A DNA stretch of 64,000 nt from a virus (IMGVR_UViG_3300010882_000011:64001-128000), one strand, 5' to 3'. Counted from the first letter of the stretch, positions 1-64,000 are shown. Notes: generated by a model from the sequence alone, not told the origin. Numbers and translations are program-made.

Positions 1-747
1 TATTTAAGATCTAATAACGTAACATTAGAACAAGTTGTAGATTACTTTGCAAACCAGAGGCTAGAAGACTATTTATCACAAAATCCTGACCAAAGACAAA
101 TTCAGTCTTACTCGATTGATGAATATACTAATGAAGAACTCTACGTTGCAGATATCAAGTCGAAATTCCCATCTTTGAGTGATGAAGAATTACAACAGGA
201 ATTAGATAGAGCTAAAGAAAATGAAGATTTGTTTAATAAAAAAGTTGAAATTCTTCGCGAGACTTATAAAGCTGAAGAACAGAAACAAATCGAGTTAAAC
301 GAGCAACAGGTTCAACAGCAATTTGAAGATCTTAAAAATAACCTAACAAGTGTATTATATAATTTCAATGAAATACCGTTAGATTATGATGATCCTCAAA
401 CTGATATGTTAGTTATTGAAGACGCAGACAAAAATCAAGTATTATCTTATTTGCTTGAACAAGATTCAGAAGGTAAAAGTCAATTTGTAAGAGATATTGA
501 AAATCCAGAGAAGTTAATTGAATTGGCATGGCTTGCCCTACAGGGAATGACTACAATTACTGAAACTTCTCAATATTGAAAAGATATTTTAAAATCTGAA
601 CGAAAGAAGATTTCAACTCTGGAGAAAGAGATTGAATCTTTAAAAGCAAGGGGACAAAATACTGTTATAATTGACAAAGGTAATGATACACCTCCACAAG
701 TATCTGGGATGGGTTCACTTTGAAGTTCGCGAAACAACCTAATATAG
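1..747 (+). CDS. Acidic conserved crAss-like protein upstream of MCP (possible scaffolding protein), 5'-partial; TGA=Trp at 577-579 and 721-723
   Basis: Frame 1 is open from base 1 and reads through two TGAs to TAG at 745-747; acidic, coiled-coil-like; sits directly upstream of MCP. Confidence 0.7.
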
Positions 748-771
748 GCAAATAAATAATATATTTAAATT

Positions 772-2199
772 ATGAGAATAACAAACTTTACAACTGTAAG
801 ACCTAATATGAGCGAAACTCGCACATATGAGGATTTTATGAAATTTTTAGGGGCTAACCCTGCAAGACTTGGTATTGTATCTACTTTGTATGATCAATAC
901 ACAGCAACTCACTTAACTGAAGCTCTTTTGAATACTTATACATTGGAAAAAGGTAAGAAAAATGCTTTCCAAAGTATTGATTCATTCGTAGTTGAATGGG
1001 ACATTAATGTAAACCGTATCAAACGTGTACATTTCAAAGCTGTTCCTGAAGGCGATGGCGCTAACGGAAGTGATATTATATTTAGATTTGGAGAAAACTA
1101 CTACCAGAAATTTGACACTTTCATTATAGAAAGAACTCGTCAGTTGATTATCGTTCTAAATCGTCCACAACGTATTAGCGATAATGAATGGGTAGTAATT
1201 GGTAAAATCCAAGACAGCGATTACGGCTCTGTTCTTGATACGTCTGGCACACAAGTTGGTATGCCTACACGTTTCGTAACGAACTACATGCCTGAAATGC
1301 ACGAAGAAGGATACGTTAAGTATCAAAGTAACGTTGAACGTCACAGAACTTATATTGGAACACACAGAGCTGATGCTTCTATGTCTGCACAATACAATGC
1401 AATGGAAGACGTATTTATCCAAATTGGAAAAGGTGATAAAGACGATCCTATCTATAAACTAAACACTGCTGAGAAGGACTGTTTAGATTCATTTATGGAA
1501 GCTCGTAACAACGCTTGTTTGTGGGGTAAAACAAATATGGATCAATTCGGTAAACCGAAAATTTATGACCCTGAAACTGGCCGTCCAATTATTGCTCCTG
1601 ATGGAATTATAGCTCAGATCGAGCGTTTTGCTACTAAATTTGCTTTCAGCAGATTGAACACCAAATTCTTCCACAAAGCATTACAAGTAATGGTTACTAA
1701 ATCCACAAAAGCAACTGGAAACGATTATTTATTCCTTTGCAACACTGCTATGTGGACTGAAATTCAAGAAACACTTTCAACTTGGATTCGTGATTGGAAA
1801 ACTGTAGGTACATTCGTATTCTCTACAGCATCTAACGGATATGTTGATTTAGGTGCAACTTACAACTCCTATGAGTTTGCAGGTAATAAAGTTACTTTCA
1901 AAGTTGACCGTTCATTTGACATTGAATATCCAACTCGTAAATTCGGTATTTTCTTAGATTTAACAGCCGATGCTGTATCTGGAAAAGCTGCTTTGAATAT
2001 GTTTACCTTCAAGAGAGGTGAAATTATTCATAACTTTATCAAAGGTGTTGGTGGAAACACTGGTTTACAACACGGCGAAGTATCTTCTCCTGTTGCTGCA
2101 TCTAAGATAATCAACTGGGGTTATGCAGGTGTTGGGGTTTATAATCCTTATCGTTCTGTAATCCTAATTTCTGAAGAAACTAGAACTCTTTGGTTCTAA
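772..2199 (+). CDS. Major capsid protein (crAss-like, HK97 fold)
   Basis: 475-aa ORF with crAss MCP-like sequence (e.g. GYVKYQSNVERHRTYIGTHR, LWGKTNMDQFGK); position at the head of the virion module. Confidence 0.85.
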   Translation: MRITNFTTVRPNMSETRTYEDFMKFLGANPARLGIVSTLYDQYTATHLTEALLNTYTLEKGKKNAFQSIDSFVVEWDINVNRIKRVHFKAVPEGDGANGSDIIFRFGENYYQKFDTFIIERTRQLIIVLNRPQRISDNEWVVIGKIQDSDYGSVLDTSGTQVGMPTRFVTNYMPEMHEEGYVKYQSNVERHRTYIGTHRADASMSAQYNAMEDVFIQIGKGDKDDPIYKLNTAEKDCLDSFMEARNNACLWGKTNMDQFGKPKIYDPETGRPIIAPDGIIAQIERFATKFAFSRLNTKFFHKALQVMVTKSTKATGNDYLFLCNTAMWTEIQETLSTWIRDWKTVGTFVFSTASNGYVDLGATYNSYEFAGNKVTFKVDRSFDIEYPTRKFGIFLDLTADAVSGKAALNMFTFKRGEIIHNFIKGVGGNTGLQHGEVSSPVAASKIINWGYAGVGVYNPYRSVILISEETRTLWF

Positions 2200-2217
2200 G
2201 AGATAATATTGGTGATA

Positions 2218-2242
2218 GTGCTCCTGTCTATGATGGGAGCAC
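2218..2242 (+). terminator. Stem-loop after MCP (attenuator or mRNA-stabilising hairpin)
   Basis: GTGCTCCTGTC-TAT-GATGGGAGCAC, 11-bp stem with two G-U pairs; no immediately adjacent U-tract. Confidence 0.55.
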
Positions 2243-2292
2243 ATAAACCTTTTAGATAAAATCTTAACAAGATAATTTGAATAAGAAATAAT

Positions 2293-3213
2293 ATGGAAAA
2301 TAAAACTATAACAATACGTAGCGTCTATAAAGTAAAACAATATTACATTCAGCCGCTAAAACAAAAGAATGGGATGAATCATCCATTTGTAAAGAAAGTA
2401 AGAATTAATCCGAATGGAGAATCCGAGATGATTCTTAGTGAAAAGGAAATGAATGATCCAGAAAGTCAATATTTCATCCCAGAAGATATGGAAATATTTA
2501 TTGAAGATGGAACAACTTTTAACTTAGCTGATCCTTTGCAAAGAAATAAATGGTTGGCCATTCAGGATTCTGAATTAATTGTTCCAACACGTGGAGCAAA
2601 AGATGAACATGGTAATTTAATCATTGATGGAGATAAACGTAGATATGGATTAGCCGAACTTTACGTTGATGTTCCTGGAGAAGAATCAGAAAAGAGTGTT
2701 AATAAGAGAAAACTAATCACCAAAGCATGGACATATATTGAAAATGATTCTGCTGCTGGTAGATTAACAAAGGTGAAATTACTAGGTAAAGTAATGAGAA
2801 ATGCTCCAGAATCGGACATTGCGGATTACTTATATCAAAAAGCAGAAGCTAAACCTGAATTGGTAATTGATCTTTATACAAGTCCCGATAGTGTACTGAA
2901 ACTTTTACTTATTGACGCAAGAGAGAAAAACGTTATAAGAAAAATCAATCAGTTATTCATGTATGGAGACACTGTTCTCGGAGCAACTGATGAAGCAATG
3001 ATATTATTCTTGAAAACTCCTTCTAATAAGAGAGTTTTAGAAGCCATCAAAAACGAAACATATCCCGATTTTGTTCGTACTGTAAATTCCAATTTAGATG
3101 GACAACAAGACCCTAATGATGAAAATCCTGGTCTTGCACTTACAAACGAAGACCCTATTCCCGAAATAAGTGAAGTTGACAAACAACTTAACAAAGGGAA
3201 AAATAATAAATAA
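2293..3213 (+). CDS. Conserved crAss-like virion protein (p-crAssphage gene 75-like position)
   Basis: 306-aa ORF following MCP; synteny. Confidence 0.65.
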   Translation: MENKTITIRSVYKVKQYYIQPLKQKNGMNHPFVKKVRINPNGESEMILSEKEMNDPESQYFIPEDMEIFIEDGTTFNLADPLQRNKWLAIQDSELIVPTRGAKDEHGNLIIDGDKRRYGLAELYVDVPGEESEKSVNKRKLITKAWTYIENDSAAGRLTKVKLLGKVMRNAPESDIADYLYQKAEAKPELVIDLYTSPDSVLKLLLIDAREKNVIRKINQLFMYGDTVLGATDEAMILFLKTPSNKRVLEAIKNETYPDFVRTVNSNLDGQQDPNDENPGLALTNEDPIPEISEVDKQLNKGKNNK

Positions 3214-3233
3214 TAAATAACAAGTAGAAACCT

Positions 3234-4121
3234 ATGACAAGTCGCGAACTTTATGAATATGCTTTAATTGAAATTAATAAGTTAGAAGCGCCTTCATTAC
3301 TACTGGAAGATTATAACTATTTTATTAATAAGGCTGTTCAACAGTATATTAATAAAGTTTATAATCGATACGACATTAATCAACAGTCAACAGACGATTT
3401 ACGAGTATTAAAGTCCTCTTCAATTTTGGAATTGGAACTTGATGCTTCTGAAATTAGCATGATAAACCTTCTTAATAGAACGTATTCATGTTTTATGCCA
3501 GACGATTATCTTCACATTTTGAACTGTGTGGTTGAATATGAAGTATTATCACAAAACTTTAAATGTTACGATGTTGGAACTAGAGTTTATTTCCCCGCAA
3601 GGAGATTAACTGCCGATATGTATTCACTGATTATCAATAATGCTTATATGCGTCCAATGTATAAAAGACCATATTACTTTATTAATAATGTGAACCTTAC
3701 TGAATATCAAAATAGTAATCTAATTGCTGTACCACAGAAACCAATATTGCCGTCTAATCCAGAAATGGATCAGGAAATTATTGACTCTGATCAAATTGAC
3801 AGTATTAGACCAATCTTTGATAGAAAATCCAATAACTCCACAGTTAAACTAGAAATTAGATATGGACAAGATGATGCTTTATTTTTAGCAAGAAGAGCAT
3901 ATGTGGATTATATTAAATCTCCAATGTTCGTTCGTCTTACTCAATCTCAAATTGACAGAACAGTTGATACTTCACAGGTTTTAGAATTTCCAGATTATGT
4001 ATGTTTTGAAATAGTAAACGAATTCGTTAAACTATTGTTAGAAAACGCAAGTGATCCTAGAATCCAAACTAATCCAGTAGTAAATCAAACAATTGCAACG
4101 GGAATACCTGAGCAACAATAA
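3234..4121 (+). CDS. Conserved crAss-like neck/tail ring protein (gene 74-like)
   Basis: 295-aa ORF; N-terminus YALIEINKLEAPSLLLEDYNYFINKAV and DDLRVLK resemble the crAss ring-protein family; synteny. Confidence 0.65.
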   Translation: MTSRELYEYALIEINKLEAPSLLLEDYNYFINKAVQQYINKVYNRYDINQQSTDDLRVLKSSSILELELDASEISMINLLNRTYSCFMPDDYLHILNCVVEYEVLSQNFKCYDVGTRVYFPARRLTADMYSLIINNAYMRPMYKRPYYFINNVNLTEYQNSNLIAVPQKPILPSNPEMDQEIIDSDQIDSIRPIFDRKSNNSTVKLEIRYGQDDALFLARRAYVDYIKSPMFVRLTQSQIDRTVDTSQVLEFPDYVCFEIVNEFVKLLLENASDPRIQTNPVVNQTIATGIPEQQ

Positions 4122-4154
4122 AAGAAAATAGAAATTTAAAACAAGTAAGAAATT

Positions 4155-5333
4155 ATGTTTACCTATACAAAAGAAATTATCATCAACTCGATGTATGCTG
4201 ACCAAGATGCTTATGGTTCAGGTCAACAGTTGCCTAAAATACAATCTGTAATTACTCCTGCTCCGAATACAGCACCTGCTGGTGTACTTAGAATATTAAG
4301 AGCTGGTGAGTACAAACAAGAAAACATTCAAGGAGCTAGAATTTTCAAAACTCCTGGTGTTGTTGGACAAACTGCTACAATGTTAGTTCCAAATGCAGCT
4401 GGTTTAATGGCCACTGCTGGTATTTACAGAGTTTCCATTTATATTGGAATGGCTCATAAATACTTAGGAGACTTTGCTCACGCAAACTGGTATCCATTTG
4501 GTAAAGCATTAGTTGCTGACTTCTCTGTTGCAGACGGAATGAGTGCTGCTGAGAAAATGCAACAAATGACAAATGCAATCAACTTGACTATTCCTCGCAA
4601 TAACATTTTTGCAAGAACAGTTCTTAACGGAGTTGACCTTTCAGTTTATTTAACTGATCCTTATGCTTTCATCGCCAGAGCTACTTTGGAATGGTATGAT
4701 CCAAACGAATGTAATCTTTGCTCTGGATTCTACACAGAAATTCCAGAATTTGAAAACCTAGTTGAAATTACTAGAAATGTTGAGCCATTTGCAACTGCTG
4801 CATGGTTAGTAGAAAACTTGAGATTCCCAAGTTATCCGAATGTTCGTTATGCTGCTTTGTATGCTGATGAATATCCAATTGCTGGACAACTTTACACTAT
4901 GTATTCATTTGCATATGATGTTGAAAGAACTGGTTACTTCGGATTAAACGGAGTTAACGAGAAAATGGGTGCTGTAACAAGACACGTGTACTATGTACTT
5001 AATAGCGAAGTTGCTGCTTTTGAAGCACAAGTAACTGCTGCATTCCCAAATGTTGCTATTGTAGAAAATAATACTGTTATGATTACAACTGCTCCAACAG
5101 TTGCTAACGATGGTGTTGCTATTCAATTAGTAGCTACTACTTGGCCAATGGATTCTTCTGCAACTATCACTTGGGCTTCTGCGGATCTTCCAGCTGATGT
5201 TACTTTAACTTCTACTGGTATATTGACTGCTGATCCTGCCGCTGTAGTTGGAGCAACATTCACCGTAACTGCTACATCCAGCAATCCTGACTATAAAGAA
5301 GCATCTATATTGATGACTGTAATTGCAGGATAA
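4155..5333 (+). CDS. Auxiliary capsid/decoration protein with C-terminal Ig-like domain
   Basis: 392-aa ORF; C-terminal ~85 aa is Thr/Ala/Val-rich with Ig-like pattern (ATITWASAD...TGILTA...TFTVTATS). Confidence 0.6.
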   Translation: MFTYTKEIIINSMYADQDAYGSGQQLPKIQSVITPAPNTAPAGVLRILRAGEYKQENIQGARIFKTPGVVGQTATMLVPNAAGLMATAGIYRVSIYIGMAHKYLGDFAHANWYPFGKALVADFSVADGMSAAEKMQQMTNAINLTIPRNNIFARTVLNGVDLSVYLTDPYAFIARATLEWYDPNECNLCSGFYTEIPEFENLVEITRNVEPFATAAWLVENLRFPSYPNVRYAALYADEYPIAGQLYTMYSFAYDVERTGYFGLNGVNEKMGAVTRHVYYVLNSEVAAFEAQVTAAFPNVAIVENNTVMITTAPTVANDGVAIQLVATTWPMDSSATITWASADLPADVTLTSTGILTADPAAVVGATFTVTATSSNPDYKEASILMTVIAG

Positions 5334-5357: not shown

Positions 5358-5400
5358 AAGGGCGAAGTGGAATTCGGTTTCGCTTCGCCCTTTTCATTTT
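5358..5400 (+). terminator. Rho-independent terminator ending the capsid operon
   Basis: AAGGGCGAAG...CTTCGCCCTT stem (5358-5392) followed by T-rich tract. Confidence 0.85.
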
Positions 5401-5413: not shown

Positions 5414-6079
5414 ATGTTACTAACAGAATTGGCTTCTGCCATATATAATGATGTTGTGGGTGGTTTACGCGGATATGCAGCTACTCCAAATATGTCTTTG
5501 GAACAGCTTGAAGATGAAATCATTGAAGAAAGACAGGCTGTAATTAAAGAATGATATTGAAAAGGAATATTATCCGTAAAGGATTTATTATTGGCTATTA
5601 ACTGTATTGAAGTTGATTGTAAAGATCAATCCCGTTGTTGTGGTTTTGAATTGGGAAGGAATGCAATGCACTTTGAAATTCCCCCGCTGATTAATGATTT
5701 AGGTTCACAGGCAATTAAATTTGTTGGCAGTGTTGACAGACAAGTAAATTATTATGTGTATATGACTGATGCTTTTAGATACCACAAGTATAGAAAACGC
5801 AGTGCTGATGAACCATACGTTTACATTGAACCTACACCAAACGAAAACGGCATGTATGACGGATGAATTTTTAATGTGCCGTTTGTGAAGTATATTTCAG
5901 TTATAGGAATTTTTCGTGATCCCAGAATGCTCGAAATGTTTAATTGTTGTGAGAAAACCCACATCTTAAATTTGGGTGCAGTATCCAGCGAAGTAAAAAG
6001 AAGATTAACGGAGAAAAAATTGAGGTACTATCGTCAATTTGCACCACCTCCACATCCTAATGATCAAATCCCACGTTAG
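5414..6079 (+). CDS. crAss-like tail/neck ring protein, 221 aa (TGA=Trp x3)
   Basis: ATG 5414 in frame with track fragments 5591 and 5876; TGA at 5552, 5558, 5864; ends TAG. Confidence 0.7.
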
Positions 6080-6081: not shown

Positions 6082-6771
6082 ATGAGATTAAATAACATGC
6101 GATCAATCATACCAATGATTCGTATTCTTTATGATGTTGATATCGATTCAACTGAATTTGAAGATTTAGCAATGAATGCTTGGGAACAAATTGGTCAAAG
6201 ACACACACAATTACATAGATATGTAGCCAACACTGTTGATAGAATGTTGGAATTACCGTGTAATCTTGATATAATTGAATCTGTACATATTCCAATTAAT
6301 GATGCTCAGATGACCAGTAATCAAGACATCTTCCACTCAGTTCAAACTCTATGAGTTGAAAATTATATTGATCTATGGAAACGATTAGAACATCCAATAG
6401 CTGGACGAGGAAAACTTGTGAAGTATTGGGAAGCTGGAAATCAATTGCAATTTTCCAGAGATTATAGAAATGTAATGGTTATTTATCATGGAATCATTGT
6501 TGATGATGATGGACTTCCATTGATAAATGAAAAGGAAGAAAAAGCTATTTCTGCTTATATTGCTTATATATACCTATATAAAGAAGCTCTTAAAAAGAGA
6601 GATAAAGTATTAATGGAAATGTCTCAATTAGTAAAAAGAGATTGATTAAAATATTGTAATGCGGCTAGAATTCCTGCAAATATCACACAGAACGATATGG
6701 ATCAAATACTTGATGTTAAGGTTCGATGGGATAGAAAGCAATTTGGAAAATCAATTAAACCAATATTATAA
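6082..6771 (+). CDS. crAss-like tail/neck ring protein, 229 aa (TGA=Trp x2)
   Basis: Joins fragments 6082 and 6418 through TGA 6352 and 6643; ends TAA abutting the next ATG at 6772. Confidence 0.7.
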
Positions 6772-7212
6772 ATGCGATATAAAACAGGGTACTGTTTTAC
6801 TGCAGAAGATTTATACTATAGTTTCGACTATAAAAGATTAAACATTCGGAAAGAAACAGTACAGAAGAAATATAAGGTTGTTAATAGGCAACAATTGTGT
6901 GGTAGAATTTTAGTTTATCTTTTTTACCTCATCATCTTGGATATTATAAAAAATAATGTTACCTTTGCATGACGTATTAAGTCACGAGAGATGATGATCC
7001 ATGTTAAGTCTTTCGAGGGAGAAAGATTTAAGAACATGTATAGAAAGGGGTGCTTTATGGGTATTGATTATCTAAACTCAAATTTCATGGGCTATCAGAT
7101 TTACTTTTGATATCCTTACAAAGAAGGAATTAGGGAAAAGCCAATATACATAAACAAAAGACTAAAAGAGATGTTCTATGAGAACATCAATAATGGTATG
7201 CAATATTATTAA
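6772..7212 (+). CDS. Basic conserved crAss protein, possibly IHF-like, 146 aa (TGA=Trp x2)
   Basis: Reads through TGA 6970 and 7108 to TAA; TAATG overlap with the next gene; the IHF-like label rests on size and synteny only. Confidence 0.55.
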
Positions 7213-7757
7213 TGGAAATACGAAACCCATCAGATTATTACGAAAAAGTGCAGGAGAAATTCCCAGATTTAACTCTGGCAGAAATTAAAAGAGTTGTGGA
7301 TTTTGGATTAAAGTCTTTTTACAGACATAATCTAATTGGTGGGGATGTTCTTCTAAAATCACGAGATATAACCGTTTATAGTGGTAAAATGTTTGCCAGT
7401 AATTTGGTCTTTTACCACTATTGACGTATAAAACATAAAATTAAATTGAGATTCAAATACAGAAGTAGTAAAACTCAATTTAATGGCGAATACTATTTTG
7501 GATTAAGCCAAAGACAATTTGATGAATATTGTGGTAAATTTACTAAAAATAAGAAGAAAAATCCAAAATTGACTTTTAAAGACATTATTCTATATAAGAT
7601 ATTAGATGAGTGTCTTTTAGATAGAAATAAAAAATACTTCTTTGTATGATACTTCAATCAAAATATTGGGTACTCATATCATAAAGAGGAATTAACAACA
7701 AGGAATTTTAAATATATATATAAGAGAAATGATAAAAATGAAATTGAACCAATATAA
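7212..7757 (+). CDS. Basic conserved crAss protein, possibly IHF-like, 181 aa (TGA=Trp x2)
   Basis: Reads through TGA 7422 and 7647; TAATG overlaps at both ends. Confidence 0.55.
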
Positions 7758-51144: not shown

Positions 51145-51319
51145 ATTCTTTTTCAAGGATTAAACGTACATGCTCATCACAATCATCACATCATATAGAG
51201 TCAATATCATCTAAGCATGCTTCGCTTGTATATTCGTAGGTATTGGCATCAACTCAAGCTATAACACTAACGTTCCTAGATCCACATTCTGCACATACCC
51301 ATATTTGTTTTTCGTTCAT
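51131..51319 (-). CDS. Small Zn-finger protein, 62 aa (TGA=Trp x2)
   Basis: WVCAECGSRNV...AWVDANT...WCDDCDE; absent from the ORF track. Confidence 0.7.
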
Positions 51320-54298: not shown

Positions 54299-54467
54299 TT
54301 GTTTTCCTTAAATCAACATTGCTTAATCAAACCATGTTCACAAAATATGAAGATGATCCAAAATCTTCTAATCCTTTATCATCATTAATCAGATAAGAAT
54401 TTTGTTCAAACCCTTCGATCTCCATTAACTGTTGAACGAAGGGTCATTGTATTGGTACGAAACTCAT
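54288..54467 (-). CDS. Hypothetical protein, 59 aa (QWPFVQQLM motif; TGA=Trp x2)
   Basis: TAATG-coupled start; ends TAG; absent from the ORF track. Confidence 0.6.
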
Positions 54468-54780: not shown

Positions 54781-54990
54781 TTATGCTACCCAAATTATTA
54801 TCATTTCATTATCTTGACAGCAAAACTGTCTTCGTGTTACATGCATGTATGCAGGAGTATGTCCACAAACATAGACTTCATCTCCAACGTTTGGAATCAT
54901 CATAGTATTATCAGTTTGATATATACTATTTTTACTAAGTGATATTCCTCCATACATAAAGTGAATTTTGTATTGTTTAGAAGTCTCCAT
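54781..54990 (-). CDS. Hypothetical protein, 69 aa (IPxVG motif)
   Basis: ORF packed between neighbours. Confidence 0.6.
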   Translation of the reverse strand: METSKQYKIHFMYGGISLSKNSIYQTDNTMMIPNVGDEVYVCGHTPAYMHVTRRQFCCQDNEMIIIWVA

Positions 54991-55882
54991 AATATACCTG
55001 ACAACAAAGTAAACCTAAATCTCTCCACATATCTACTACTTTTTGTCGATCATCAAAGACACACAAAACATTGTATTTTCCTTCAATATGTTTTTCGTAT
55101 AATTCTTTCTTTATAATTGCATCATTACGGTGATCACCGTACTCTCGCATATAAAGATCAAATTCTAAATAGGGTAGGTGTTTCTTTAACCAATTGAAGG
55201 TGTCCGCATAGCAATTTGGTACACATTCTCTTCCAGAAAAGAAAATTAGCTTTGTATTTGTGTCTTTGATCATTCGGCTAAGCAAATAAGATAAACGAAT
55301 ATCTTCTTTATCAGTTGATACTCGTGTATAATCATACGGACTACGACCAGTTCTAAGGGCCAGAGTTCCGTCTATATCACATATTACACAATCATTATCA
55401 ATACCCATACACGGATTTATCATTTTACGTGTATCAACAAACCTTTCATCAACAATAGGTTCACTTGGAAAATATTTTCGGAAAAATCTTTCTAACACCT
55501 TCTTACCAACAGCACGTTTTCCTTCCTTTTCACGCTTTGTATCGCGTTCTAAGGCCGTTTTCCAATCGACTTCAAACAGTTTAAACTCGATATCACAATC
55601 GTGATGATTTGCATAAAGTCTCCATTTATCAATTGTTTTAGGATTTAAGTTTGTAGCATCAATGATAACGCTTAATCCGTCACTAAGTGCAGCAGTTACT
55701 TGGAAGTCTTCAACACTAGTAATATAATCCTCCCTTTCGGGAACCCAATATATACCACTTGCTTCACGGATTTCGTCTCGTGATACAATCACGTAACTTT
55801 TATCCTTTGCCGCTAGCTCTCTAGCAAAGGTGCTCTTGCCAGAAGCAGGAACACCTTGTAATACTAATATTTTATTCTTCAT
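54977..55882 (-). CDS. Polynucleotide kinase-phosphatase (T4 PseT/Pnkp-like), 301 aa
   Basis: GVPASGKST P-loop kinase plus HAD phosphatase DIDGT and FDDR motifs. Confidence 0.85.
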   Translation of the reverse strand: MKNKILVLQGVPASGKSTFARELAAKDKSYVIVSRDEIREASGIYWVPEREDYITSVEDFQVTAALSDGLSVIIDATNLNPKTIDKWRLYANHHDCDIEFKLFEVDWKTALERDTKREKEGKRAVGKKVLERFFRKYFPSEPIVDERFVDTRKMINPCMGIDNDCVICDIDGTLALRTGRSPYDYTRVSTDKEDIRLSYLLSRMIKDTNTKLIFFSGRECVPNCYADTFNWLKKHLPYLEFDLYMREYGDHRNDAIIKKELYEKHIEGKYNVLCVFDDRQKVVDMWRDLGLLCCQVYYGDF

Positions 55883-57284
55883 TGTCTTCTCCTTCTTGTG
55901 TTTCCATGTCAATTACACCTTTGTCCAAATTTTCAGTTTCTTTTCTTAAGAAAGCTAATGATTTGAGTTTGTAAGCCTCGAAATTAGGTTGATCAACTCT
56001 TAATACAACCCCTTCTCTTGGAACTTTGTTGTAACAATATAAACAGTTCATTTCTAAATAATCATCTGTTAGATGTTTCAGAAATGCTTCTCTCATGCTT
56101 TCAAAGCTTTCCCATTCGGTTTCTCTGTTGCAAAGGTAGCTATCCACAGTTCCATAGAATATTTCTCTAACTGGCATTAATCCAATTCTTTCGCAATACT
56201 GTCGTAAGTTTACTGCTGACATTTCAGTTACAACTCCATCAACATTCGTTTGCGTAATACGATAGACGACTATTTTAAATAGATTTGCATCAAGCATTTG
56301 CTGTGGTGTCATTTTGTTATAATCGTAGATTTTTGGGAAATACTCACATCCATAGTCATATTCCTTCTGAAGCATTCCTCCGTTAGGCAAGTAACCAACT
56401 ACTTCAGCATAGATGGTCATTCCTTTCTTAAGATGTGGTCTTATTAATTCTAAAGTAATACCCCAGATATCTACATCGCCATAAAATCCAGATCCTAATG
56501 ATTTATTCAATTCAGGATCTTTAATTACTTTACGAGATGCAGAGAATATTTGGTACTTTGTATCAACAATATTAACCTTAATAAGTTTAAGAAACTTTTC
56601 AAATATAGAAAGTTTCTTTTTTACAAGTAGATTGCAATAGATAGCTGATGTTCCGTGCCATTTGTCAGAGATATGGATTAATGTTTCTGGATTGAACTTG
56701 TGTAAGTTCTTTTTTAATTGAGCAGTATCATCATGAAATCTGAATTGTTCTTCGACAATCACGTCTTCGTATTTCCTTTCCTTCTTTCTGTTTTTACCTC
56801 CAGTTCCAGGTTGACCTGGAGTACGAGAGTGCTTAGGAATATATTTCTTCACAAATTGATAGTCATTAATCACATCAAATTCAGTCCCAACTAATGCATC
56901 TATGTTTTTCGGTAGATCCATAAGTGGTAGTAAAGAAGAAATAGGCATTACAAATCCCTCAGAATCAAAGTCTCGAAGTCTAACACAACGTACACGTCTA
57001 TTCTTTTCAAAATATCCTCCTTTACAGGTAGTGTCGCGATTGAGATTACCTTCTGAGGTTACTCTGTATAAGTTATTACAGTGTAAATAATCGTGGTGTA
57101 TTTCACACTCAGTAGGAAAGTAGATGAATATCCCTGGTTCTGTATCAATACCCACAGAGATCACAAATCCATCTACTGTAGCTAATTTCATTCTATCAGC
57201 ATTTGGATGTGGTTTAAATGAATCAATTCTTGCTATTTTGGCAAGATAATTCGGGTTTGCGTTTTTACTTATCGTTAGGTTCAT
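55872..57284 (-). CDS. RNA ligase (DRB0094/Rnl2-like with N-terminal OB-like domain), 470 aa
   Basis: HPNADRMKLA N-terminus, motif I DKWHGTS, YAEVVG, REGVVLR...YKLKS. Confidence 0.8.
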   Translation of the reverse strand: MNLTISKNANPNYLAKIARIDSFKPHPNADRMKLATVDGFVISVGIDTEPGIFIYFPTECEIHHDYLHCNNLYRVTSEGNLNRDTTCKGGYFEKNRRVRCVRLRDFDSEGFVMPISSLLPLMDLPKNIDALVGTEFDVINDYQFVKKYIPKHSRTPGQPGTGGKNRKKERKYEDVIVEEQFRFHDDTAQLKKNLHKFNPETLIHISDKWHGTSAIYCNLLVKKKLSIFEKFLKLIKVNIVDTKYQIFSASRKVIKDPELNKSLGSGFYGDVDIWGITLELIRPHLKKGMTIYAEVVGYLPNGGMLQKEYDYGCEYFPKIYDYNKMTPQQMLDANLFKIVVYRITQTNVDGVVTEMSAVNLRQYCERIGLMPVREIFYGTVDSYLCNRETEWESFESMREAFLKHLTDDYLEMNCLYCYNKVPREGVVLRVDQPNFEAYKLKSLAFLRKETENLDKGVIDMETQEGEDNEE

Positions 57285-57552
57285 ACCAGCTGTTTACTAC
57301 TTTATGATAATTATGGTCAATACTACTCTGGCCAAGCAGAAAAGCTTCCCAAAGTAATACCTCTAACGGAGATGGGTGATCTTCGTTATCAAATATTTCA
57401 TTTATTTTGTTGTAGGTTTCATTGTTTCCGTAGCAATCTAGATCACTTAACCACTCTGTGAAGTGTATATCTTCGTGAAAGGAAGAAAGAAGGCCAACAT
57501 TAGGACCTCTCATGATTCTTTTTTGAAAGTCTGTTATAGGTTTATTTTCCAT
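57265..57552 (-). CDS. Hypothetical protein, 95 aa
   Basis: ORF overlapping both neighbours. Confidence 0.6.
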   Translation of the reverse strand: MENKPITDFQKRIMRGPNVGLLSSFHEDIHFTEWLSDLDCYGNNETYNKINEIFDNEDHPSPLEVLLWEAFLLGQSSIDHNYHKVVNSWYEPNDK

Positions 57553-58153
57553 GTAATTGTTGTGTAAAAATTGTTTTTAAATCCTGATAAAGTACTGGTT
57601 TGAAATTATTATTATCAACTCCAACATCATAACTTGGTAAAGGTCTATTAGCGATATAATCAACATCAAGTTGTTTGGTTGATAATGGAGAAGTGTGTGA
57701 ATGTCCGAAACAGTGATATACTCCATTCCATTGTCCTGGCCATGAGGTCATACAATAGTGAAACAAACAGAAATTAGTGTAAGTTTCTGTTTCCTCCTCC
57801 CATATAGAAAGATAAACTATATCATCAACAGATTCAAACCCATCATGATATATCTCATCTGGCCTATCATGGTTTCCTAGAATTAAGTACTTCTTCCCAT
57901 TCAGGTTATCTAAGTGCTTTTTCCATTCTTTCTTACTGCCAAAACAGAAGTCTCCTAAAACAAAAACGAGGTCATCGTTTGTGACAACCTCGTTCCAGTT
58001 CGTAGTAAGAGCCTCGTTCATCTCTTGACGAGATATAAAAGGTCTGTTGCAGTATTTGGTAATATTAAAATGAGAAAAATGTAAATCACTTGTAAAGAAT
58101 ACATTGCCTGTAAATTCTTTAGGTATTGTTATCCTCTTCATAGTTATGTTCAA
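57542..58153 (-). CDS. Calcineurin-like metallophosphoesterase
   Basis: SDLHF, LGDF, GNHD, GHSH motifs; exact start uncertain. Confidence 0.85.
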   Translation of the reverse strand: MNITMKRITIPKEFTGNVFFTSDLHFSHFNITKYCNRPFISRQEMNEALTTNWNEVVTNDDLVFVLGDFCFGSKKEWKKHLDNLNGKKYLILGNHDRPDEIYHDGFESVDDIVYLSIWEEETETYTNFCLFHYCMTSWPGQWNGVYHCFGHSHTSPLSTKQLDVDYIANRPLPSYDVGVDNNNFKPVLYQDLKTIFTQQLHGK

Positions 58154-58694
58154 ATAAGTATTCTATAGTTTCTTGCCATTCCCTGTATTTTTTAACAGCT
58201 TCATCGTATTCATCCCAGTATTCTGGTTTTAAGTAGTTTTGTTGTAGTGTAAAATATGAAGTTCCTATATTGTCTTTGTTATAGGTAGTCCACTTTCCCT
58301 CCGCCTTCATTGTTTCAAATAAGTCACCTGGTTTTTCACCATGTAGGTAACTTAATATGCTTGTCCAATAATGATCAGAACTTTCGTGTTCAGAATGTGG
58401 CCAATATTTCCACCAGTAAAAGCACAGCCCAAAGAAGACAATGCCGAATGTTGGAGGAAATTCATAGCGGAAATCATAACTAGTCCATTTTGTTTTGTAG
58501 AACAAATCCCAGTTAAAGATATAAAAACTTAACCAGATTGGAAGGTTAAATGATTTTCCAAAGATTTTGATATAATTCCCCCTTCTCCATATAGGTAAGC
58601 CTGGACTCTTTCTCCATCTTCCGAAGAAGAATGCGTTTTTCGGAGCTACAAAGACATCCTTTACCTTGTTGTAAGTTTTATTTATTTTTATCAT
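58119..58694 (-). CDS. Trp/Phe/Tyr-rich hypothetical protein, 191 aa
   Basis: 12 Trp, all TGG. Confidence 0.65.
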   Translation of the reverse strand: MIKINKTYNKVKDVFVAPKNAFFFGRWRKSPGLPIWRRGNYIKIFGKSFNLPIWLSFYIFNWDLFYKTKWTSYDFRYEFPPTFGIVFFGLCFYWWKYWPHSEHESSDHYWTSILSYLHGEKPGDLFETMKAEGKWTTYNKDNIGTSYFTLQQNYLKPEYWDEYDEAVKKYREWQETIEYLFEHNYEEDNNT

Positions 58695-58713
58695 TGTTTT
58701 TGATTTTATTCAT

Positions 58714-58795
58714 TTTTAGACGTTCTGGGAGACTTTGTGTCGATCTGGACCTGTCCCTCATGTTGGTACTCAAAGTCCCGCCAGAGTGCCTAAAA
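58714..58795 (-). ncRNA. Candidate structured intergenic RNA/DNA element
   Basis: 56% GC over 58721-58790; 14-bp plus 8-bp interrupted stem whose G-U pairs favour the - strand. Confidence 0.45.
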
Positions 58796-58820
58796 TCAAA
58801 TGAAAAGTGTATAATTTTTT

Positions 58821-59081
58821 CTATTTTGAGATGATTTCCCAAAGGTCATTAAACGAAATATCAGTTTGCTTAAAGAGATATTCCTCTATTAGTTCTTGGT
58901 TTTTTTCTCCAAATATATGTCCAATTAATTTGAATATAACATAATTAACATTGGAGTAGTAACTACATTCCTGTGAATCTATATCTACACCTACTACAGA
59001 TAACCTTTCCTTAATTTCTTCAGAATTTTGGTATGCCCGTAGAATTAGTAGAAATTCCTCTTTAGTCATTGTCGTCTTCAT
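58821..59081 (-). CDS. Hypothetical protein, 86 aa
   Basis: ORF overlapping the DNA ligase stop. Confidence 0.6.
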   Translation of the reverse strand: MKTTMTKEEFLLILRAYQNSEEIKERLSVVGVDIDSQECSYYSNVNYVIFKLIGHIFGEKNQELIEEYLFKQTDISFNDLWEIISK

Positions 59082-60243
59082 ATCTTACGTATTTGAATAT
59101 CGGTAAATTTGGTACTCCATCTGGTGTAAAGCCAAAGAATTTTACTGTACCTTGTTGTCCGATTATGTTGTTCATGTTTTTTCTGTATTCCTGTTTCAAA
59201 GCTCTATCGCCAATTGGCTTAGCTTCAAATGATCTTCCGTTAGGAGCTTGTAATTGAAATACAAAATCCTCCTCACGGAGACCTTCAACCATTCCAGTGA
59301 TGAGAAACTCATCATCCTGAAACATTTTAATTTTTATCATGCGGTTATCTCGCTTTCCAAATCCATATTCCTTATTAGGATTACGGATTATACAACCTTC
59401 ATATCCTTCCTTCACATATTTATCATGTAAGTGATCAATATCACTCCATGATGTAGTTTTTACATGTTCGCATACAACTATTTTGTCAGAGTCCTCAAAT
59501 ACATCTTGCATTTCTTCCAAAAGTGCAAGTCTTTCAGTAAATGGAACATCAGGAATAGCTATATCAAACACGTAGTATTTCAAATCACAGTGATGTGCTT
59601 CAAGTGTAATTTTTCTACATAATCCAGAAATATATGGTAATGGTAAACCATGAATATACAATTCACCATCTAATACAATGTCTGGATAAGATTGCATGAA
59701 TTCTATTAGTTTGGGATCTTGAAGAATATGTGTAGATGGAATATCATAATTGCCTCCACCTCTTGATGAAGTTTTCAACTCATCATCCTGCATTTTCATC
59801 ATCATGCGTACTCCATCGAGCTTTCGGCTACAATAATGCTCTTTCTCAAATGTAGAGAGAGCGACATCATTATAAGATTTACATTGCATTGGCTTCTGGA
59901 AGCCTGCTTGATCTGTAACCTCCTGTGGAAATACTTCGTTTGGATCAAATTCATCTAATGATGAATATCCAAAATCTTGTATATCCTTATATCCTTTATC
60001 AAGATATTTTTTAATATGAGAATTATATTCCAGATCAATTTGTTCGGCTAAAGTTCTTTTAGCTTTACCTTTGTTAACTTCGATTAGTGGTTGCTCAGTA
60101 ATTTTACCTCCAAGTTGAGAGGTTTTCCTGATGATTATAAATGAATGTAGTGCTTCATTCCACTGATAACAGATATCTACAACTCTAATCTTTCCTTTGC
60201 TGTCTCGTGTAATTAGTATATTATTCATTCTCAATGGGTTCAA
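59062..60243 (-). CDS. ATP-dependent DNA ligase
   Basis: SRKLDGVR, VLDGELY, YEGCIIR, IKIKMFQDDEF, VKFF...G.P..P OB motifs. Confidence 0.9.
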   Translation of the reverse strand: MNPLRMNNILITRDSKGKIRVVDICYQWNEALHSFIIIRKTSQLGGKITEQPLIEVNKGKAKRTLAEQIDLEYNSHIKKYLDKGYKDIQDFGYSSLDEFDPNEVFPQEVTDQAGFQKPMQCKSYNDVALSTFEKEHYCSRKLDGVRMMMKMQDDELKTSSRGGGNYDIPSTHILQDPKLIEFMQSYPDIVLDGELYIHGLPLPYISGLCRKITLEAHHCDLKYYVFDIAIPDVPFTERLALLEEMQDVFEDSDKIVVCEHVKTTSWSDIDHLHDKYVKEGYEGCIIRNPNKEYGFGKRDNRMIKIKMFQDDEFLITGMVEGLREEDFVFQLQAPNGRSFEAKPIGDRALKQEYRKNMNNIIGQQGTVKFFGFTPDGVPNLPIFKYVRYEDDND

Positions 60244-60457
60244 ACTCGGTAGAAATAATTCTTTCCTCTACAGGTAGTAATTCGTTACCAAATTGACCTT
60301 CCCTTTCTCCCCACTTCTTAGCTTCTTGAACTATAAACTGAAGATCATCTTGGTCAATCTGGTTATACCTCGCTACTTTATCAAGTATTTCTCTTGTTTT
60401 CTGCTTTGGAGAACCATTCTCTTTGAAGTTAGATAAGGTTTCGTATTTATAAGGCAT
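60221..60457 (-). CDS. Hypothetical protein, 78 aa
   Basis: ORF overlapping neighbours. Confidence 0.6.
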   Translation of the reverse strand: MPYKYETLSNFKENGSPKQKTREILDKVARYNQIDQDDLQFIVQEAKKWGEREGQFGNELLPVEERIISTEFEPIENE

Positions 60458-60608
60458 TTTCAGTAGGTTTATATTTCCTCCTCTTGTATCTCTTTTTAGA
60501 TTCTACAATATTGGAGTAATTGATTGATTTGCCATGAAGTTCAAATTCCTCTTCTCTTGCTTTACGTTTAGCTACTTTCATGGCATCTTTTATGCGATTT
60601 CTTTTCAT
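60447..60608 (-). CDS. Small basic hypothetical protein, 53 aa
   Basis: MKRNRIKDAMKVAKRKAREEEFELHGK...; fills the gap; below the track cutoff. Confidence 0.6.
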   Translation of the reverse strand: MKRNRIKDAMKVAKRKAREEEFELHGKSINYSNIVESKKRYKRRKYKPTENAL

Positions 60609-60609
60609 G

Positions 60610-62034
60610 TTACTTAATTAACATATGTATATCCTTTCTTGTTCTGGACATACTAACATATTGTAATTGTCTTAATTCTTGCTTATTTGTACATCTCAAT
60701 ATATTTTCCATATCAATCAGTACATTGTCAAATGAGCTTCCTTGACTTTTGTGGGTACTTAGACAGTAACCGTAACTCAAACTTTTATTCCGAATTACTC
60801 TACCATCAAAAATCATATCAATTGGAGTTAGAAATGATCCCATGATTTTGAAATACTTAACCCACAACTTATTTCGTTTTTCCTTACTTCTCTCGTTTAT
60901 GGCATCAAACCTTGCTCTCTCTACACAATAAGCTATTGAATTAAATACTTCAAGGGAATTTTGTGTTGATAGAACATAAACATGCAGAAAGAATTCCTCA
61001 TAAACGGAATATAAATCTAATAAATAACCTTCCGTTCAAATTCCACAAATTTCCTTTTGATGGGGACATATACCTGTGACTATGTAATCGTTAGAATTAT
61101 ATAGTTTATAGGATAATCCTCCTCTGGAAAATGAATAGTGCATATTATCTGACTTATATTCACAAGAATCATGGGCCATTAATATATCACCAAGATTGTA
61201 TTCATTGTCGTTTTCAAAAATCATTTTCCTAATTACTTTATTAAAGGCATCTACTCGTTTATTAGTATATGCTAGTAATTTAATGAGATTGGGATTTTGA
61301 TCTTTAACTGATTGCTTAAATAGAGAAATGTTCTTACCCAATAATCGCTGCCAATTATTATATATTACTAGATTTCCATTCGGAGAAATAATTTCTGAAA
61401 AGTTTTTCTGGCTTTTAGTTCGCAGTTCAGTTAGAACATCAAGTATAGGATTATCATCTTCTTGTCGATAAATTTTACTTAACTGAAAAGTTGAGTCAAT
61501 CTTTGTAGCTTTAGACAATTTGTTATCCTTAACTGGTTGTAACTGACAGGCATCTAAAATCCATATGATTTTACAATCTCTTCTTTTACACTGTTCGACT
61601 ATATAATCAAATAGCACTTCATTTATCATTGAAGCTTCATCAATTAATAATATTCCATCTCGTGGAATACCGTTGTCTAATGTATTAGAATTGAATTGCA
61701 GATCTTTGAAATCTAGTTCAAGAATGTCAAGAGTTGGTTTAAGTGAAAGTAGTTGATGTACTGTAATAACATCCCGTTCAGTTGATTCCGAAATAACTCG
61801 TTTGGCTTTATGAGTTGGGGCAGCAATTATATAAGATAATCTTTTTTCTTCAATATATCTTATTATTAATTTAGTAATGGTTGTCTTTCCAGTTCCAGCA
61901 GATCCAATTAGAGAACATTGTTTTTGATCAACATCCTCTATAAAATTAAAAATTGAGAGAAGTACATCTCTCTGTTCTTCTCCCAATTTAAATTTTAAGT
62001 ATTGTTTCTCTAAATTGTCTATAGTGGGATTCAC
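60610..62034 (-). CDS. SF1B (Dda/RecD-like) DNA helicase, 474 aa (one TGA=Trp at 61036)
   Basis: GSAGTGKT, DEASM, IYRQ, THKSQGSSF, YVSMSR; two track fragments in one frame. Confidence 0.88.
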
Positions 62035-62417
62035 TATTTTTTCAATTCGCCCATTACTCCACGACTGACTCTATCATCAATTCGTCTTTTACAGGCAGTA
62101 AGAAACATTTCCAATCCTGTTTTCATTGGTTCATATTGGTCATGCGGATAAACTGCATTAAGCTTTTCTAACCTATCTAATAGAATATAGGCTAGTTGCT
62201 CGCTCTGAAGACCTGGTAAAATATCACCATTATCAAATTTCTGAACAAATCGAATTCTTATTTCGTCATCAATATACTCAGTTTTTCCTTCGTTGTAGCC
62301 AAGAGTTGGTTTACACCAGTACTCATGTGCTCCGCCGTACGTATCATCAAGTTTTACACTTATCGTGCATTCATCACTTGGATAAACCTTCCAGTCTAAT
62401 GTTTTGAAAAATTCCAT
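62034..62417 (-). CDS. Tad1-like (Thoeris anti-defence sponge) protein, divergent, 127 aa
   Basis: GGAHEY, I-x-F-x-Q, G-x5-L-x2-I-x2-DRL and RR-x2-DR-x2-R-x-V-x-G match the Tad1 pattern as recalled; ATG 62417 one base after the dut stop. Confidence 0.6.
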   Translation of the reverse strand: MEFFKTLDWKVYPSDECTISVKLDDTYGGAHEYWCKPTLGYNEGKTEYIDDEIRIRFVQKFDNGDILPGLQSEQLAYILLDRLEKLNAVYPHDQYEPMKTGLEMFLTACKRRIDDRVSRGVMGELKK

Positions 62418-62418
62418 G

Positions 62419-62889
62419 TTATTTCTTATCAGTTGATCCAAATCCACCTGTTCCTCTTTCAGTTTCAGACAGATCTTCTACTTCTTCAAACTCAATTGCA
62501 GGATAAGGTAAAATCATTATTTGACCTATCTTATCTCCAATTGCATATTGCTGATCGCAATTTAACCATGTTTCCATGTGTCCATTTTCGTTCTCAAACG
62601 TTACTGGTCTAAGAACTCTTTTGTAACGGAATAATAATTCTCCACGATATCCACTGTCAAGGACTCCTACACTGTTACATAGTAATAGGTCTTTTTTACT
62701 GTTGCTGGATCTTGGGAAAATTAGCATTACGTGTCCTTCTGGAACTTCAAAAGAAAGTCCAGTTCCATATTCAACATACTCGTCTGTATTATTTAGAGAG
62801 ATAGCTGTTATGTCCATCCCTGCGTCTCCTGGTTTAGAGTAACTAGGAATAACTGCGTCAGGGTGTATTTTTTTTATTTTAACTTGCAT
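62419..62889 (-). CDS. dut: dUTPase (trimeric), 156 aa
   Basis: AGMD, PRSS, GVLDSGYRGE, RGTGGFGST motifs; ATG 62889 in TAATG overlap. Confidence 0.92.
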   Translation of the reverse strand: MQVKIKKIHPDAVIPSYSKPGDAGMDITAISLNNTDEYVEYGTGLSFEVPEGHVMLIFPRSSNSKKDLLLCNSVGVLDSGYRGELLFRYKRVLRPVTFENENGHMETWLNCDQQYAIGDKIGQIMILPYPAIEFEEVEDLSETERGTGGFGSTDKK

Positions 62890-63062
62890 TAAAATACTAT
62901 TATTATAAATGAAATGGTTACCCATATCAGAATTCTAACGATTAGAATTTCGTTAGTAAACTGTGAGAAATCAATCTTCTTTATGATAGCATCTTTGCTT
63001 ACGATTAATGCATTTCCTATTACTTCTAATAGAACCATTAACGCAATTATAAATTTAAGCAT
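62889..63062 (-). CDS. Small two-TM membrane protein, 57 aa
   Basis: MLKFIIALMVLLEVIGNALIV...EILIVRILIWVTISFIIIVF*; TAATG coupling. Confidence 0.6.
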   Translation of the reverse strand: MLKFIIALMVLLEVIGNALIVSKDAIIKKIDFSQFTNEILIVRILIWVTISFIIIVF

Positions 63063-63528
63063 TTCTTCAAAACTTTTCAGTTATATCAACAAATTGCTCA
63101 CCATTGATTTTATATAATCTTTGGTTCGTGTTTGGGTTATTCAAAGCACCTAGTTCCTCAACATAGGGGCCGAGTTTGATGTAATCAAATGCAGAAAGAA
63201 AACTGGCATTTTGATATGCATCTTCCAATTCCTTTCTTCCAGAATACCAGGCTGTTTTTATTCCATGTACTTCTTTAACTGTATAAGCCATTAGCCATAC
63301 TTCATGGGCAGTTTTATCGCCACCCATAAAACATAAACAAGTAGTATTTGGATACTTTTTCAGTAACCTTTCTACTACTTTCATATCAAAACGTTTGCCG
63401 ACATTTTCCTGTAATTCAGGAGTATGGCAACCTTTACAATGATAAGGACAGTTAGACAAATTGATTGCTAACGTTGTTTCGTCTGGTATCTCTGTAAATA
63501 CAATATCGTATTCAGTATATTTAAGCAT
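63055..63528 (-). CDS. nrdG: Anaerobic ribonucleotide reductase activase (radical SAM), 157 aa
   Basis: CPYHCKGC, CFMGGD, DYIKLGPY, TNQR; ends DITEKF-W(TGA)-RNA*. Confidence 0.9.
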
Positions 63529-64000
63529 AATACCGTTGTTTTGCCTCTACTTGTCTTCCTTCACTAAATGCACTTACTGGTCTTAAATAACCAATAATTC
63601 TTGTCCATTGTGTAATCTTATGACTTCCGCATTTTGGACATTCATTTAGTGGTCTTTTCTCAATATATCCACAACTATTACATTCACTATTAGGAACATT
63701 GAACGTAAAGTAGCTAGTACCTTCCTTAATAGCAAAGTTAATAACATTTCTATATTGTTCCTGACTTAAATGATCAGCTAAATTAATGTGGGCACCAACA
63801 CCGCCATCAAGCTTATCAGTATATTTCTTACCATGAAGTGTGAGTTTATCAAACACATTTAAGGTGTTATCCTCTGGTTTATAGAAGTATGAATTATAAC
63901 AATTCCTATCTAAAGGAACCCAATAATTGTCTTCCTTATCCCAATTATAGTTTTTGATGCCCAATCCTTCTGCTGGAACAAATTCAGTATTGAACTTGAT
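63521..64000 (-). CDS. nrdD: Anaerobic ribonucleoside-triphosphate reductase, C-terminal part (5'-partial)
   Basis: TEFVPAEG, GGVGAHINL, CPKCGS Zn ribbon, glycyl-radical loop TRIIGYL. Confidence 0.9.
   Translation of the reverse strand: MKFNTEFVPAEGLGIKNYNWDKEDNYWVPLDRNCYNSYFYKPEDNTLNVFDKLTLHGKKYTDKLDGGVGAHINLADHLSQEQYRNVINFAIKEGTSYFTFNVPNSECNSCGYIEKRPLNECPKCGSHKITQWTRIIGYLRPVSAFSEGRQVEAKQRYYA

Follow-up and report, generated by a model that had tools for sequence, protein, structure and literature searches.

Long genes on both strands of a crAss-like phage genome are interrupted by TGA, which raises two questions for the stretch analysed here (the window: 64,000 bases, bases 64001-128000 of one 170,238-bp contig with 34.5% G+C). 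First, is TGA a sense codon in this phage and, if so, for which residue? Second, must UGA be suppressed before the phage replicates its DNA, given that the interrupted genes include those for a family A DNA polymerase (PolA), ThyX and a Dda-like helicase? A first-pass annotation had proposed that TGA is reassigned to tryptophan throughout, and that the code switch must be active before replication. The recoding of TGA in this genome is confirmed here to be real, and the alignments make its reading as tryptophan secure. That suppression is active before DNA replication appears plausible from the positions of TGA in the replication genes.

Greedy non-overlapping sets of open reading frames (ORFs) were compared across the whole genome under translation tables 4, 11 and 15. 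Table 4, with TGA as sense, gave a coverage of 96% and a mean ORF length of 267 aa, against 85% and 159 aa under table 11, and thus repaired the fragmentation of the genes; table 15, with TAG as sense, reached 87% with no coding gain and was rejected. Within the window, 37 long ORFs are obtained under table 4, among them plus-strand ORFs of 1237, 1608, 1775, 2825, 3111 and 1503 aa, which are broken by table 11, and a minus-strand PolA of 662 aa. Genome-wide, 206 ORFs hold 282 in-frame TGA codons versus 499 TGG codons. The TGA codons singled out by the first-pass annotation are present at 18070 on the plus strand and at 50395, 63067 and 51338 on the minus strand, and the gene junctions that it listed are as described, with TAATG at all ten and TAGTG at 62034. 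Its further observation, that all genes end in TAA or TAG and that there are no ATGA overlaps, is true by construction once TGA is taken as sense. Elsewhere on the contig, a 488-aa gene with 10 TGA codons (contig 49337-50803; L003:13337-14803, plus strand) occurs in the public 50%-identity protein library only as three pieces (147, 70 and 69 aa), all of them 100% identical to it; therefore, the phage has been annotated publicly with table 11. An exhaustive representative search with the 488-aa protein returned its own table-11 fragments and a common domain only, giving no usable orthologues for its TGA columns.

The residue encoded by TGA was read from homologues. In TerL, five of the six TGA columns are invariant Trp among 21 homologues (56-68% identity), and the sixth is Trp wherever a residue is aligned. 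PolA has seven TGA codons, and among 17 homologues (64-72% identity) five of these columns, including the C-terminal one at codon 660, are invariant Trp and two align with Arg/Lys. As three of the six TGG columns of PolA are invariant Trp, its TGA columns are at least as Trp-like as its TGG columns. In an alignment with three solved ThyX chains, the TGA of ThyX falls on the Trp of the W-x-H-F motif; the TGA of DUF192 aligns to Trp in structures 3pjy and 3m7a. The Trp assignments proposed for the GDCWIH motif of PolA (51338), for ThyX (50395) and for DUF192 (18070) all fall on a Trp conserved in homologues or structures. For the KFW site of NrdG, a PDB search gave no match; this TGA, at codon 154 of 157, may be sense or stop.

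The PolA orthologues in L009-L011 (172.6-kb and ~160-181-kb contigs) translate under table 11 and write Trp as TGG, and that of the closest relative requires TGA to be Trp. Compared with the standard-code replisome genes of L009, TGA of this phage stands opposite TGG in 15 of 23 cases, and its TGG opposite TGG in 14 of 25. In the late genes, its TGA faces TGA or TGG in 20/25, 13/19 and 14/20 cases in the comparisons with L016-L018; its TGG is often opposite TGA of the relatives, and the remaining mismatches are mostly aromatic codons. Whichever part of the genome is taken, TGA and TGG together account for 1.35-1.58% of its codons, and TGG alone would halve the Trp content of the late block.

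TGA is used very unevenly along the genome. In ORFs of at least 150 aa, with the first 25 and last 10 codons left out, the TGA/TGG count is 0/67 in the 24 ORFs of an outer minus-strand tier, separated from the replication genes by the tRNA(UCA) gene, 30/125 in the 40 ORFs of a minus-strand middle tier running from the tRNA cluster to the replication end, and 168/162 in the 34 ORFs of the plus-strand late block. The TGA share of Trp codons is 0%, about 20% and about 50%, respectively (Fisher p=1.7e-5 for outer versus middle tier and p=1.8e-11 for middle tier versus late block). Within the window, the capsid operon (772-5333) has 0 TGA and 15 TGG, where the remainder of the late block has 193 and 164 (Fisher p=1.3e-5), and TGA returns, three times, in the very next ORF (5414-6079) after the hairpin that closes the operon. 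Another block, on the minus strand among the replication-side genes (54977-60608), is also TGA-free. The claim that TGA is reassigned "throughout" is too strong, as it does not extend to the outer tier or to these two stretches. The counts fit a gradient of three tiers (early, middle and late), interrupted within the window by two TGA-free islands, better than a code used by all genes.

All 24 long outer-tier ORFs end in TAA or TAG, the few TGA of this tier being at ORF ends or in tiny ORFs. The A-ending share of the other A/G codon pairs is 0.64-0.82 in all tiers, so everywhere TGA is held below mutational equilibrium, and the outer-tier and capsid genes show this most. The base following a sense TGA is A in 46% of cases, versus 33% after TGG (genome-wide, chi-square p=0.007), which may be a context effect on release-factor competition. 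After true stops, the next base is mostly T or A.

The plus-strand block (contig 26.9-112.7 kb) encodes TerL, a P22-like portal, crAss ring proteins, a large cell-wall hydrolase, Ig-repeat fibre proteins and the giant ORFs. Leftwards from ~26.9 kb, over the contig junction and on to 112.7 kb, the genes lie on the minus strand. Here belong the tRNA cluster (156.7-163.0 kb), the genes for replication and nucleotide metabolism, and those for NAD-salvage enzymes, a GroEL-type chaperonin, an SPFH protein and a PurA-like protein. The TGA codons of the middle tier are concentrated in the replisome and ThyX; they are found in PolA (7), the SNF2 helicase (3), the primase, the DnaB-type helicase and RNase H (2 each), the AAA_24 ATPase, the Dda-like helicase and ThyX (1 each), and some unassigned genes. 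NrdD, dUTPase, dNMP kinase, PNKP, both ligase-type genes, the phosphoesterases and GroEL are without it. Two HNH-type homing endonuclease genes among the tRNA genes (contig 157939-158544 and 160787-161641, minus strand), with 3 and 4 TGA, are the most recoded on that side.

What decodes TGA? The window contains no tRNA, and ARAGORN finds 20 tRNAs in the genome, all on the minus strand and none of them a tRNA-Trp(CCA). The sole tRNA(UCA), which ARAGORN labels tRNA-SeC, lies at contig 162826-162919 on the minus strand (L006:18826-18919), is 94 nt long and scores 60.7 bits on the Rfam tRNA model. Its acceptor, as read from the sequence, has A1-U72, G2-C71 to G5-C68 and the discriminator G73; A1-U72, G2-G5:C68-C71 and G73 are bacterial Trp identity bases (PMC9976931). 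Its anticodon retains C35 and A36 but has U in place of C34. The molecule departs from the class I short variable loop of bacterial tRNA-Trp in having a variable region of 25 nt, with a 5-bp stem and a 7-nt loop, G-U-CCA-A-A, which is the tRNA-Trp anticodon loop. This loop is kept in relatives, and the stem is changed by compensatory pairs. The RNAfold minimum-energy fold, which pairs the extra-arm region with the D/anticodon stem, is not conserved in the relatives, and the covarying hairpin was preferred. No match to RF-1, PCRF or tRNA-synt_1b was found in the genome, which encodes neither RF1/RF2 nor TrpRS. Of the decoding machinery that the first-pass annotation suggested seeking, the tRNA(UCA) was thus found, outside the window, and a release-factor or TrpRS gene was not.

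With regard to the second question, the premise is borne out: PolA, ThyX and the Dda-like helicase do carry TGA, and so do, beyond the window, the primase, the DnaB-type helicase, the SNF2 helicase, the AAA_24 ATPase and RNase H. Most of the replisome TGA codons are Trp positions of standard-code orthologues. The first TGA is met at codon 88 of 662 in PolA, 23 of 414 in the SNF2 helicase, 128 of 367 in DnaB and 142 of 340 in the primase. Termination there would leave useless fragments of PolA and the SNF2 helicase; hence a working phage replisome needs UGA suppression. On their common strand, the TGA-free genes and the replisome genes have the tRNA(UCA) gene between them, a position compatible with the tRNA being expressed earlier than the replication genes or along with them. 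Recoded replication genes are not new in kind, and the "before replication" reading is modestly new in emphasis.

We propose the following course of events. The host presumably uses the standard code, and the code-neutral genes, with no sense TGA in their ORF cores and almost none as stop, would be expressed first. The tRNA(UCA) would be transcribed alongside these genes, and the host TrpRS would load it with Trp. Replisome proteins would then be completed only after the tRNA(UCA) is made, and the heavily recoded virion proteins later. TGA would be kept below its mutational equilibrium, and absent from the most abundantly made proteins, probably through competition with the host RF2. As a joint explanation, in which TGA is Trp, decoded by the tRNA(UCA) with host charging and used in tiers, and code-neutral genes precede the replisome and virion proteins, we consider this account likely.

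Several points weigh against it. Two TGA columns of PolA, codons 478 (window 51884-51886) and 567 (51617-51619) on the minus strand, are not Trp-conserved: nearly all homologues have Arg or Lys there, and one close relative has Trp at 567. They look like AGA/CGA-to-TGA single-base changes, that is, new Trp substitutions enabled by the code. A few small outer-tier ORFs have a TGA near one of their ends, possibly stop or sense. The temporal order is drawn wholly from strand, gene order and codon counts, and "upstream of the tRNA" denotes gene order, not a transcript map; crAss-like promoters are unpredictable with the tools used, and a sigma-70 promoter scan was at or below shuffle expectation. 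Moreover, TGA positions are poorly conserved among relatives and the TGA-bearing genes differ, L008 having 3 TGA versus 7 here in PolA, 4 versus 0 in the ligase and 0 versus 1 in the helicase. Such shifting of positions and genes argues for drift over a tuned gate, and the pattern may record where TGA is tolerated instead of a purpose-built gate.

The strongest alternative takes up this last point. Under permissive drift without any gate, the suppressor tRNA is there within minutes of infection and A/T pressure spreads TGA wherever expression tolerates it, so that TGA in the replisome has no timing role and marks a lineage where recoding crept further. TGA and TGG indeed swap freely at homologous Trp positions among relatives, the TGA count of PolA is 7 here, 3 in L008 and 0 in L009-L011, and the accessory genes carrying TGA differ between this phage and L008. 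The TGA share also rises as G+C at third codon positions (GC3) declines, yet it stays under the 0.7-0.8 of other A/G pairs. However, none of the 67 core Trp codons of the outer tier is TGA despite equal A/T pressure, and none of the 15 in the capsid operon, which means that strong selection shapes where TGA may occur. Drift alone is quite possible, if short of probable, and drift and a timing effect are not mutually exclusive.

It is improbable that TGA is an amino-acid codon of the host as well (table 4 or 25), with the phage matching it and no switch at all. A few bacterial lineages do use sense TGA, and the sample is from a termite gut; but a recoded host would leave unexplained the TGA-free tier of 24 long ORFs and the TGA-free capsid operon, the phage brings its own tRNA(UCA), close relatives write the same PolA Trp as TGG, and the nearest kin of TerL, portal and PolA belong to phages of Bacteroidota, hosts with the standard code (PMC7886860). 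Still less credence can be given to a reading of TGA as Ser, Gly (table 25), Sec (selenocysteine) or Cys. The long variable arm and G73 of this 94-nt tRNA resemble SerRS determinants, and the ARAGORN label would suit Sec. Yet the TGA columns are Trp in TerL (6/6), PolA (5/7), ThyX and DUF192; against Sec, the tRNA scores as an ordinary one with 7/5 acceptor/T stems and a 4-bp D stem, not the 8/5 form, and its extra arm, with a 7-nt anticodon-like loop and 4-5-nt linkers, is unlike Ser-type arms. Decay or dispensability of the TGA-bearing replication genes, with reliance on host enzymes, is scarcely credible, having nothing in its favour beyond the stop codons under table 11, while the reading of TGA as Trp gives full-length proteins that share 64-72% identity with intact orthologues and retain every catalytic Pfam domain, with no other stops or frameshifts seen.

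The preferred account, with a phage-borne tRNA(UCA) charged by the host TrpRS, leads to a further question: how would the host enzyme recognise such a tRNA? The TrpRS identity set uses anticodon bases that are changed in order to read UGA, and the extra arm may compensate for this. We suggest a natural "two-headed" suppressor tRNA, whose extra arm, a copy of the Trp anticodon stem-loop (N-U-CCA-A-A), may restore recognition by the host TrpRS, in which case the code switch would depend on it; we rate this idea as nearly an even bet. To survey such arms, IMG/VR tRNA scans were run without requiring the arm motif, and unique long tRNAs were counted. Among 52 unique tRNA(UCA) of 91-100 nt, 28 have the exact UCCAAA in the extra arm and about 9 more are near variants. 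Of 81 unique long tRNA(CUA), 51 have U[CU]UGA, the Gln anticodon plus A37. The 115 other long tRNAs from the same loci include 2 with UCCAAA and 1 with U[CU]UGA. The extra-arm stems covary in the long suppressor tRNAs. By its loop, the extra arm in the amber suppressors of TAG-to-Gln phages would be the Gln anticodon loop version of the same design. Amber tRNA(CUA) with the Gln-type extra loop (U-C/U-UG-A) occur on large phage contigs at loci L161-L336, e.g. L163, L165 and L180; L336 has a tRNA(CUA) with the Trp-type extra loop (GUCCAAA).

An engineered counterpart exists, in which a pseudo-anticodon arm placed in the variable arm recruits the anticodon-binding domain of a synthetase while the true anticodon reads a stop codon (Mukai 2020, PMC7590224). 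That design is a synthetic His system using a synthetase with an added binding domain, whereas the phage tRNAs are natural and would need to work with an unmodified host TrpRS or GlnRS. In the literature searched, "pseudo-anticodon" denotes the engineered device only, the variable arm is never mentioned in connection with phage recoding, and no published description of a natural design was found.

The contig is a virus record in IMG/VR with a CheckV completeness of 100%. Its last 64 bases (170175-170238) are repeated at contig 139-202, within a short tandem repeat. Both ends (contig 1-202 and 170175-170238) lie in this tandem repeat, with GCCAKMGCC-type units that encode Gly-X repeats on the minus strand. 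Since the ends overlap inside the repeat, a circular genome whose assembly was probably broken there is most likely. The tested stretch is present in full in three DNA runs, which come from two studies of termite gut. The window is the middle part of this 170-kb genome of a crAss-like phage from the termite gut, which is complete and probably circular.

The crAss-like assignment made at first pass finds support in several proteins. TerL (761 aa, contig 39459-41744) is 28-29% identical to annotated Crassvirales terminases over ~80% of its length (E 1e-53); the portal matches P22_portal and shares 20-27% identity with crAss portals; ORF 6082-6771 matches CrAss_Ring_1 with 41.2 bits against a cut-off of 27; and PolA is 61% identical to that of phage cr111_1. 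The match of ORF 5414-6079 to CrAss_Ring_2 is weak (18.2 bits, under the cut-off). The major capsid candidate (772-2199) shows Atlas feature similarity to Crass_capsid PF23898, a lead only, and gave no match in a Pfam hmmscan. A virion RNA polymerase (DxDxD) block is typical of crAss-like phages, and the window has giant ORFs of 2825 and 3111 aa; these had no PHROG match and no named tblastn match, tblastn with the 2825-aa ORF finding two unannotated contigs only, which does not establish an RNA polymerase identity. In PHROGs, 16 of 17 late proteins had no match.

In its size of 170 kb, its PolA, tRNA block and opal recoding, and the 150-190 kb contigs on which its homologues lie, the genome resembles the Zeta group (proposed Echekviridae). 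The TerL homologues sit on 150-176 kb contigs, some with inteins. The phage collection searched yielded no named Zeta genome. Zeta phages are crAss-like phages of 145-192 kb with complex replication modules, PolA/PolB switching and inteins, in which TGA, TAG or the standard code is used at short distance, and a Zeta-group PolB with multiple TGA has been shown (Yutin 2021, PMC7886860). Phage Lera has TGA in TerL, RNA polymerase, helicase, structural genes and "DNA-processing enzymes", together with a tRNA-SUP-TCA, and several opal-recoded Zeta genomes are tabulated without a detected suppressor (Babkin 2025, PMC12386605). The present phage shares with Zeta phages such as Lera and ct1yV3 the size range of 145-192 kb, a block of ~20-30 tRNA genes, PolA, and TGA as Trp in TerL, structural genes and some DNA-processing genes. 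It differs from them in coming from a termite and not a human gut, and in having TGA in the whole core replisome, whereas the Zeta papers report recoding of a helicase, an RNA polymerase or one PolB, and do not describe the three-tier gradient or the extra arm of the tRNA.

The Agate and Jade code-4 phages of Borges et al. (bioRxiv 10.1101/2021.08.26.457843) begin, as this phage presumably does, with a phase in the standard code; like it, they have a suppressor tRNA, and their TGA is enriched in genes for structure and lysis and nearly unused as a terminator. The Jade phages add RF1 and TrpRS, neither of which is encoded here. Replication machinery was noted there to be "variably encoded in alternative code"; in the crAss-like example the replication genes are in standard code, in contrast to those of this phage. 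Code 4 of Mycoplasma and Spiroplasma is similar in that UGA is read as Trp by a tRNA with anticodon UCA. However, theirs is a fixed cellular code with RF2 lost, whereas here the tRNA is phage-borne, the cell presumably uses the standard code and the genome is partly code-neutral.

The features of the window are collected in Table 1. A 191-aa ORF of no known family in the PNKP-ligase block (window 58119-58694, minus strand) has 12 TGG (6% Trp) and 0 TGA. In the relative L008, the PNKP and phosphoesterase genes are also TGA-free, but its ligase has 4 TGA. The TGA of the Dda-like helicase falls outside the stretch aligned to T4 Dda. In another relative, the 181-kb contig L011, a LAGLIDADG-type ORF stands at the PNKP site (L011:5852-6661) with a 264-aa PNKP remnant, PNKP being intact in the near-twin L010; this disruption is probably a mobile intron or intein insertion.

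Table 1. Features of the 64,000-base window, with positions counted from its first base.
Feature	Position	Strand	Remarks
Probable crAss-type major capsid protein	772-2199	+	Capsid operon; 0 TGA
Capsid-operon ORFs	2293-3213, 3234-4121, 4155-5333	+	0 TGA
Terminator-like hairpin, 16 pairs and T tail	5358-5392	+	Closes capsid operon
Late/virion block, densely TGA-recoded	5414-48677	+	TAATG junctions at 7212, 7757, 11470, 24537, 44166
Late ORF, weak CrAss_Ring_2	5414-6079	+	3 TGA
Late ORF, CrAss_Ring_1	6082-6771	+	
Late ORFs	6772-7212, 7212-7757	+	
Late ORFs	7757-11470 (15 TGA), 11470-16296 (12 TGA), 16299-17939	+	
DUF192	17923-18498	+	TGA at 18070
Late ORFs	19210-24537 (16 TGA), 24537-26360 (4 TGA)	+	
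Giant ORFs	26364-34841 (16 TGA), 34831-44166 (9 TGA)	+	
Late ORF	44166-48677	+	16 TGA
Terminator-like hairpin, 19 pairs, T tail	48683-48724	reported on -	Gap between convergent plus- and minus-strand gene blocks
dNMP kinase	48723-49442	-	0 TGA
ThyX	50287-51156	-	Single TGA, 50395-50397, codon 254, at conserved Trp
Family A DNA polymerase with 3'-5' exonuclease domain (PolA)	51329-53317	-	7 TGA
PolA TGA codons 88, 215, 236, 387, 478, 567, 660	53054, 52673, 52610, 52157, 51884, 51617, 51338	-	
Small ORFs, no family found	53318-53701 (1 TGA), 53701-54036 (2), 53987-54298 (0), 54288-54467 (2)	-	
TGA-free block	54977-60608	-	PNKP (54977-55912), 470-aa PHA02142-like ORF, metallophosphoesterase, ATP-dependent DNA ligase (59062-60243), small ORFs
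Dda-like SF1 (superfamily 1) helicase	60610-62034	-	1 TGA, codon 333
137-aa ORF (62034-62447, no Pfam match) and dUTPase	62034-62925	-	0 TGA; TAGTG junction at 62034
NrdG-like radical-SAM activase	63055-63528	-	TGA at 63067, codon 154/157, sense or stop
NrdD (anaerobic ribonucleotide reductase), C-terminal part	63521-64000	-	Whole gene 710 aa, 0 TGA/11 TGG

Public protein sets carry the genes of this phage as table-11 fragments; translated by table 4, the genome yields TerL, portal, ring proteins, PolA and the giant virion proteins. It also provides a clean example of graded recoding with the whole replisome on the recoded side. As the replisome is recoded and suppression is needed when it is made, the picture of recoding as a "late-gene/lysis timer" is incomplete for this lineage. 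This extends the records of Yutin 2021, Borges 2021 and Babkin 2025 and adds no new principle. The spare Trp anticodon arm of the decoder, which lies outside the window, is the more interesting lead. It could explain why a host synthetase accepts a tRNA that reads a stop codon, and why tRNA finders may have missed or mislabelled suppressors in several opal-recoded Zeta genomes. If the proposal is true, it would also explain how suppression can be effective early enough for a recoded replisome, and the pseudo-anticodon would predict which amino acid a recoded phage inserts.

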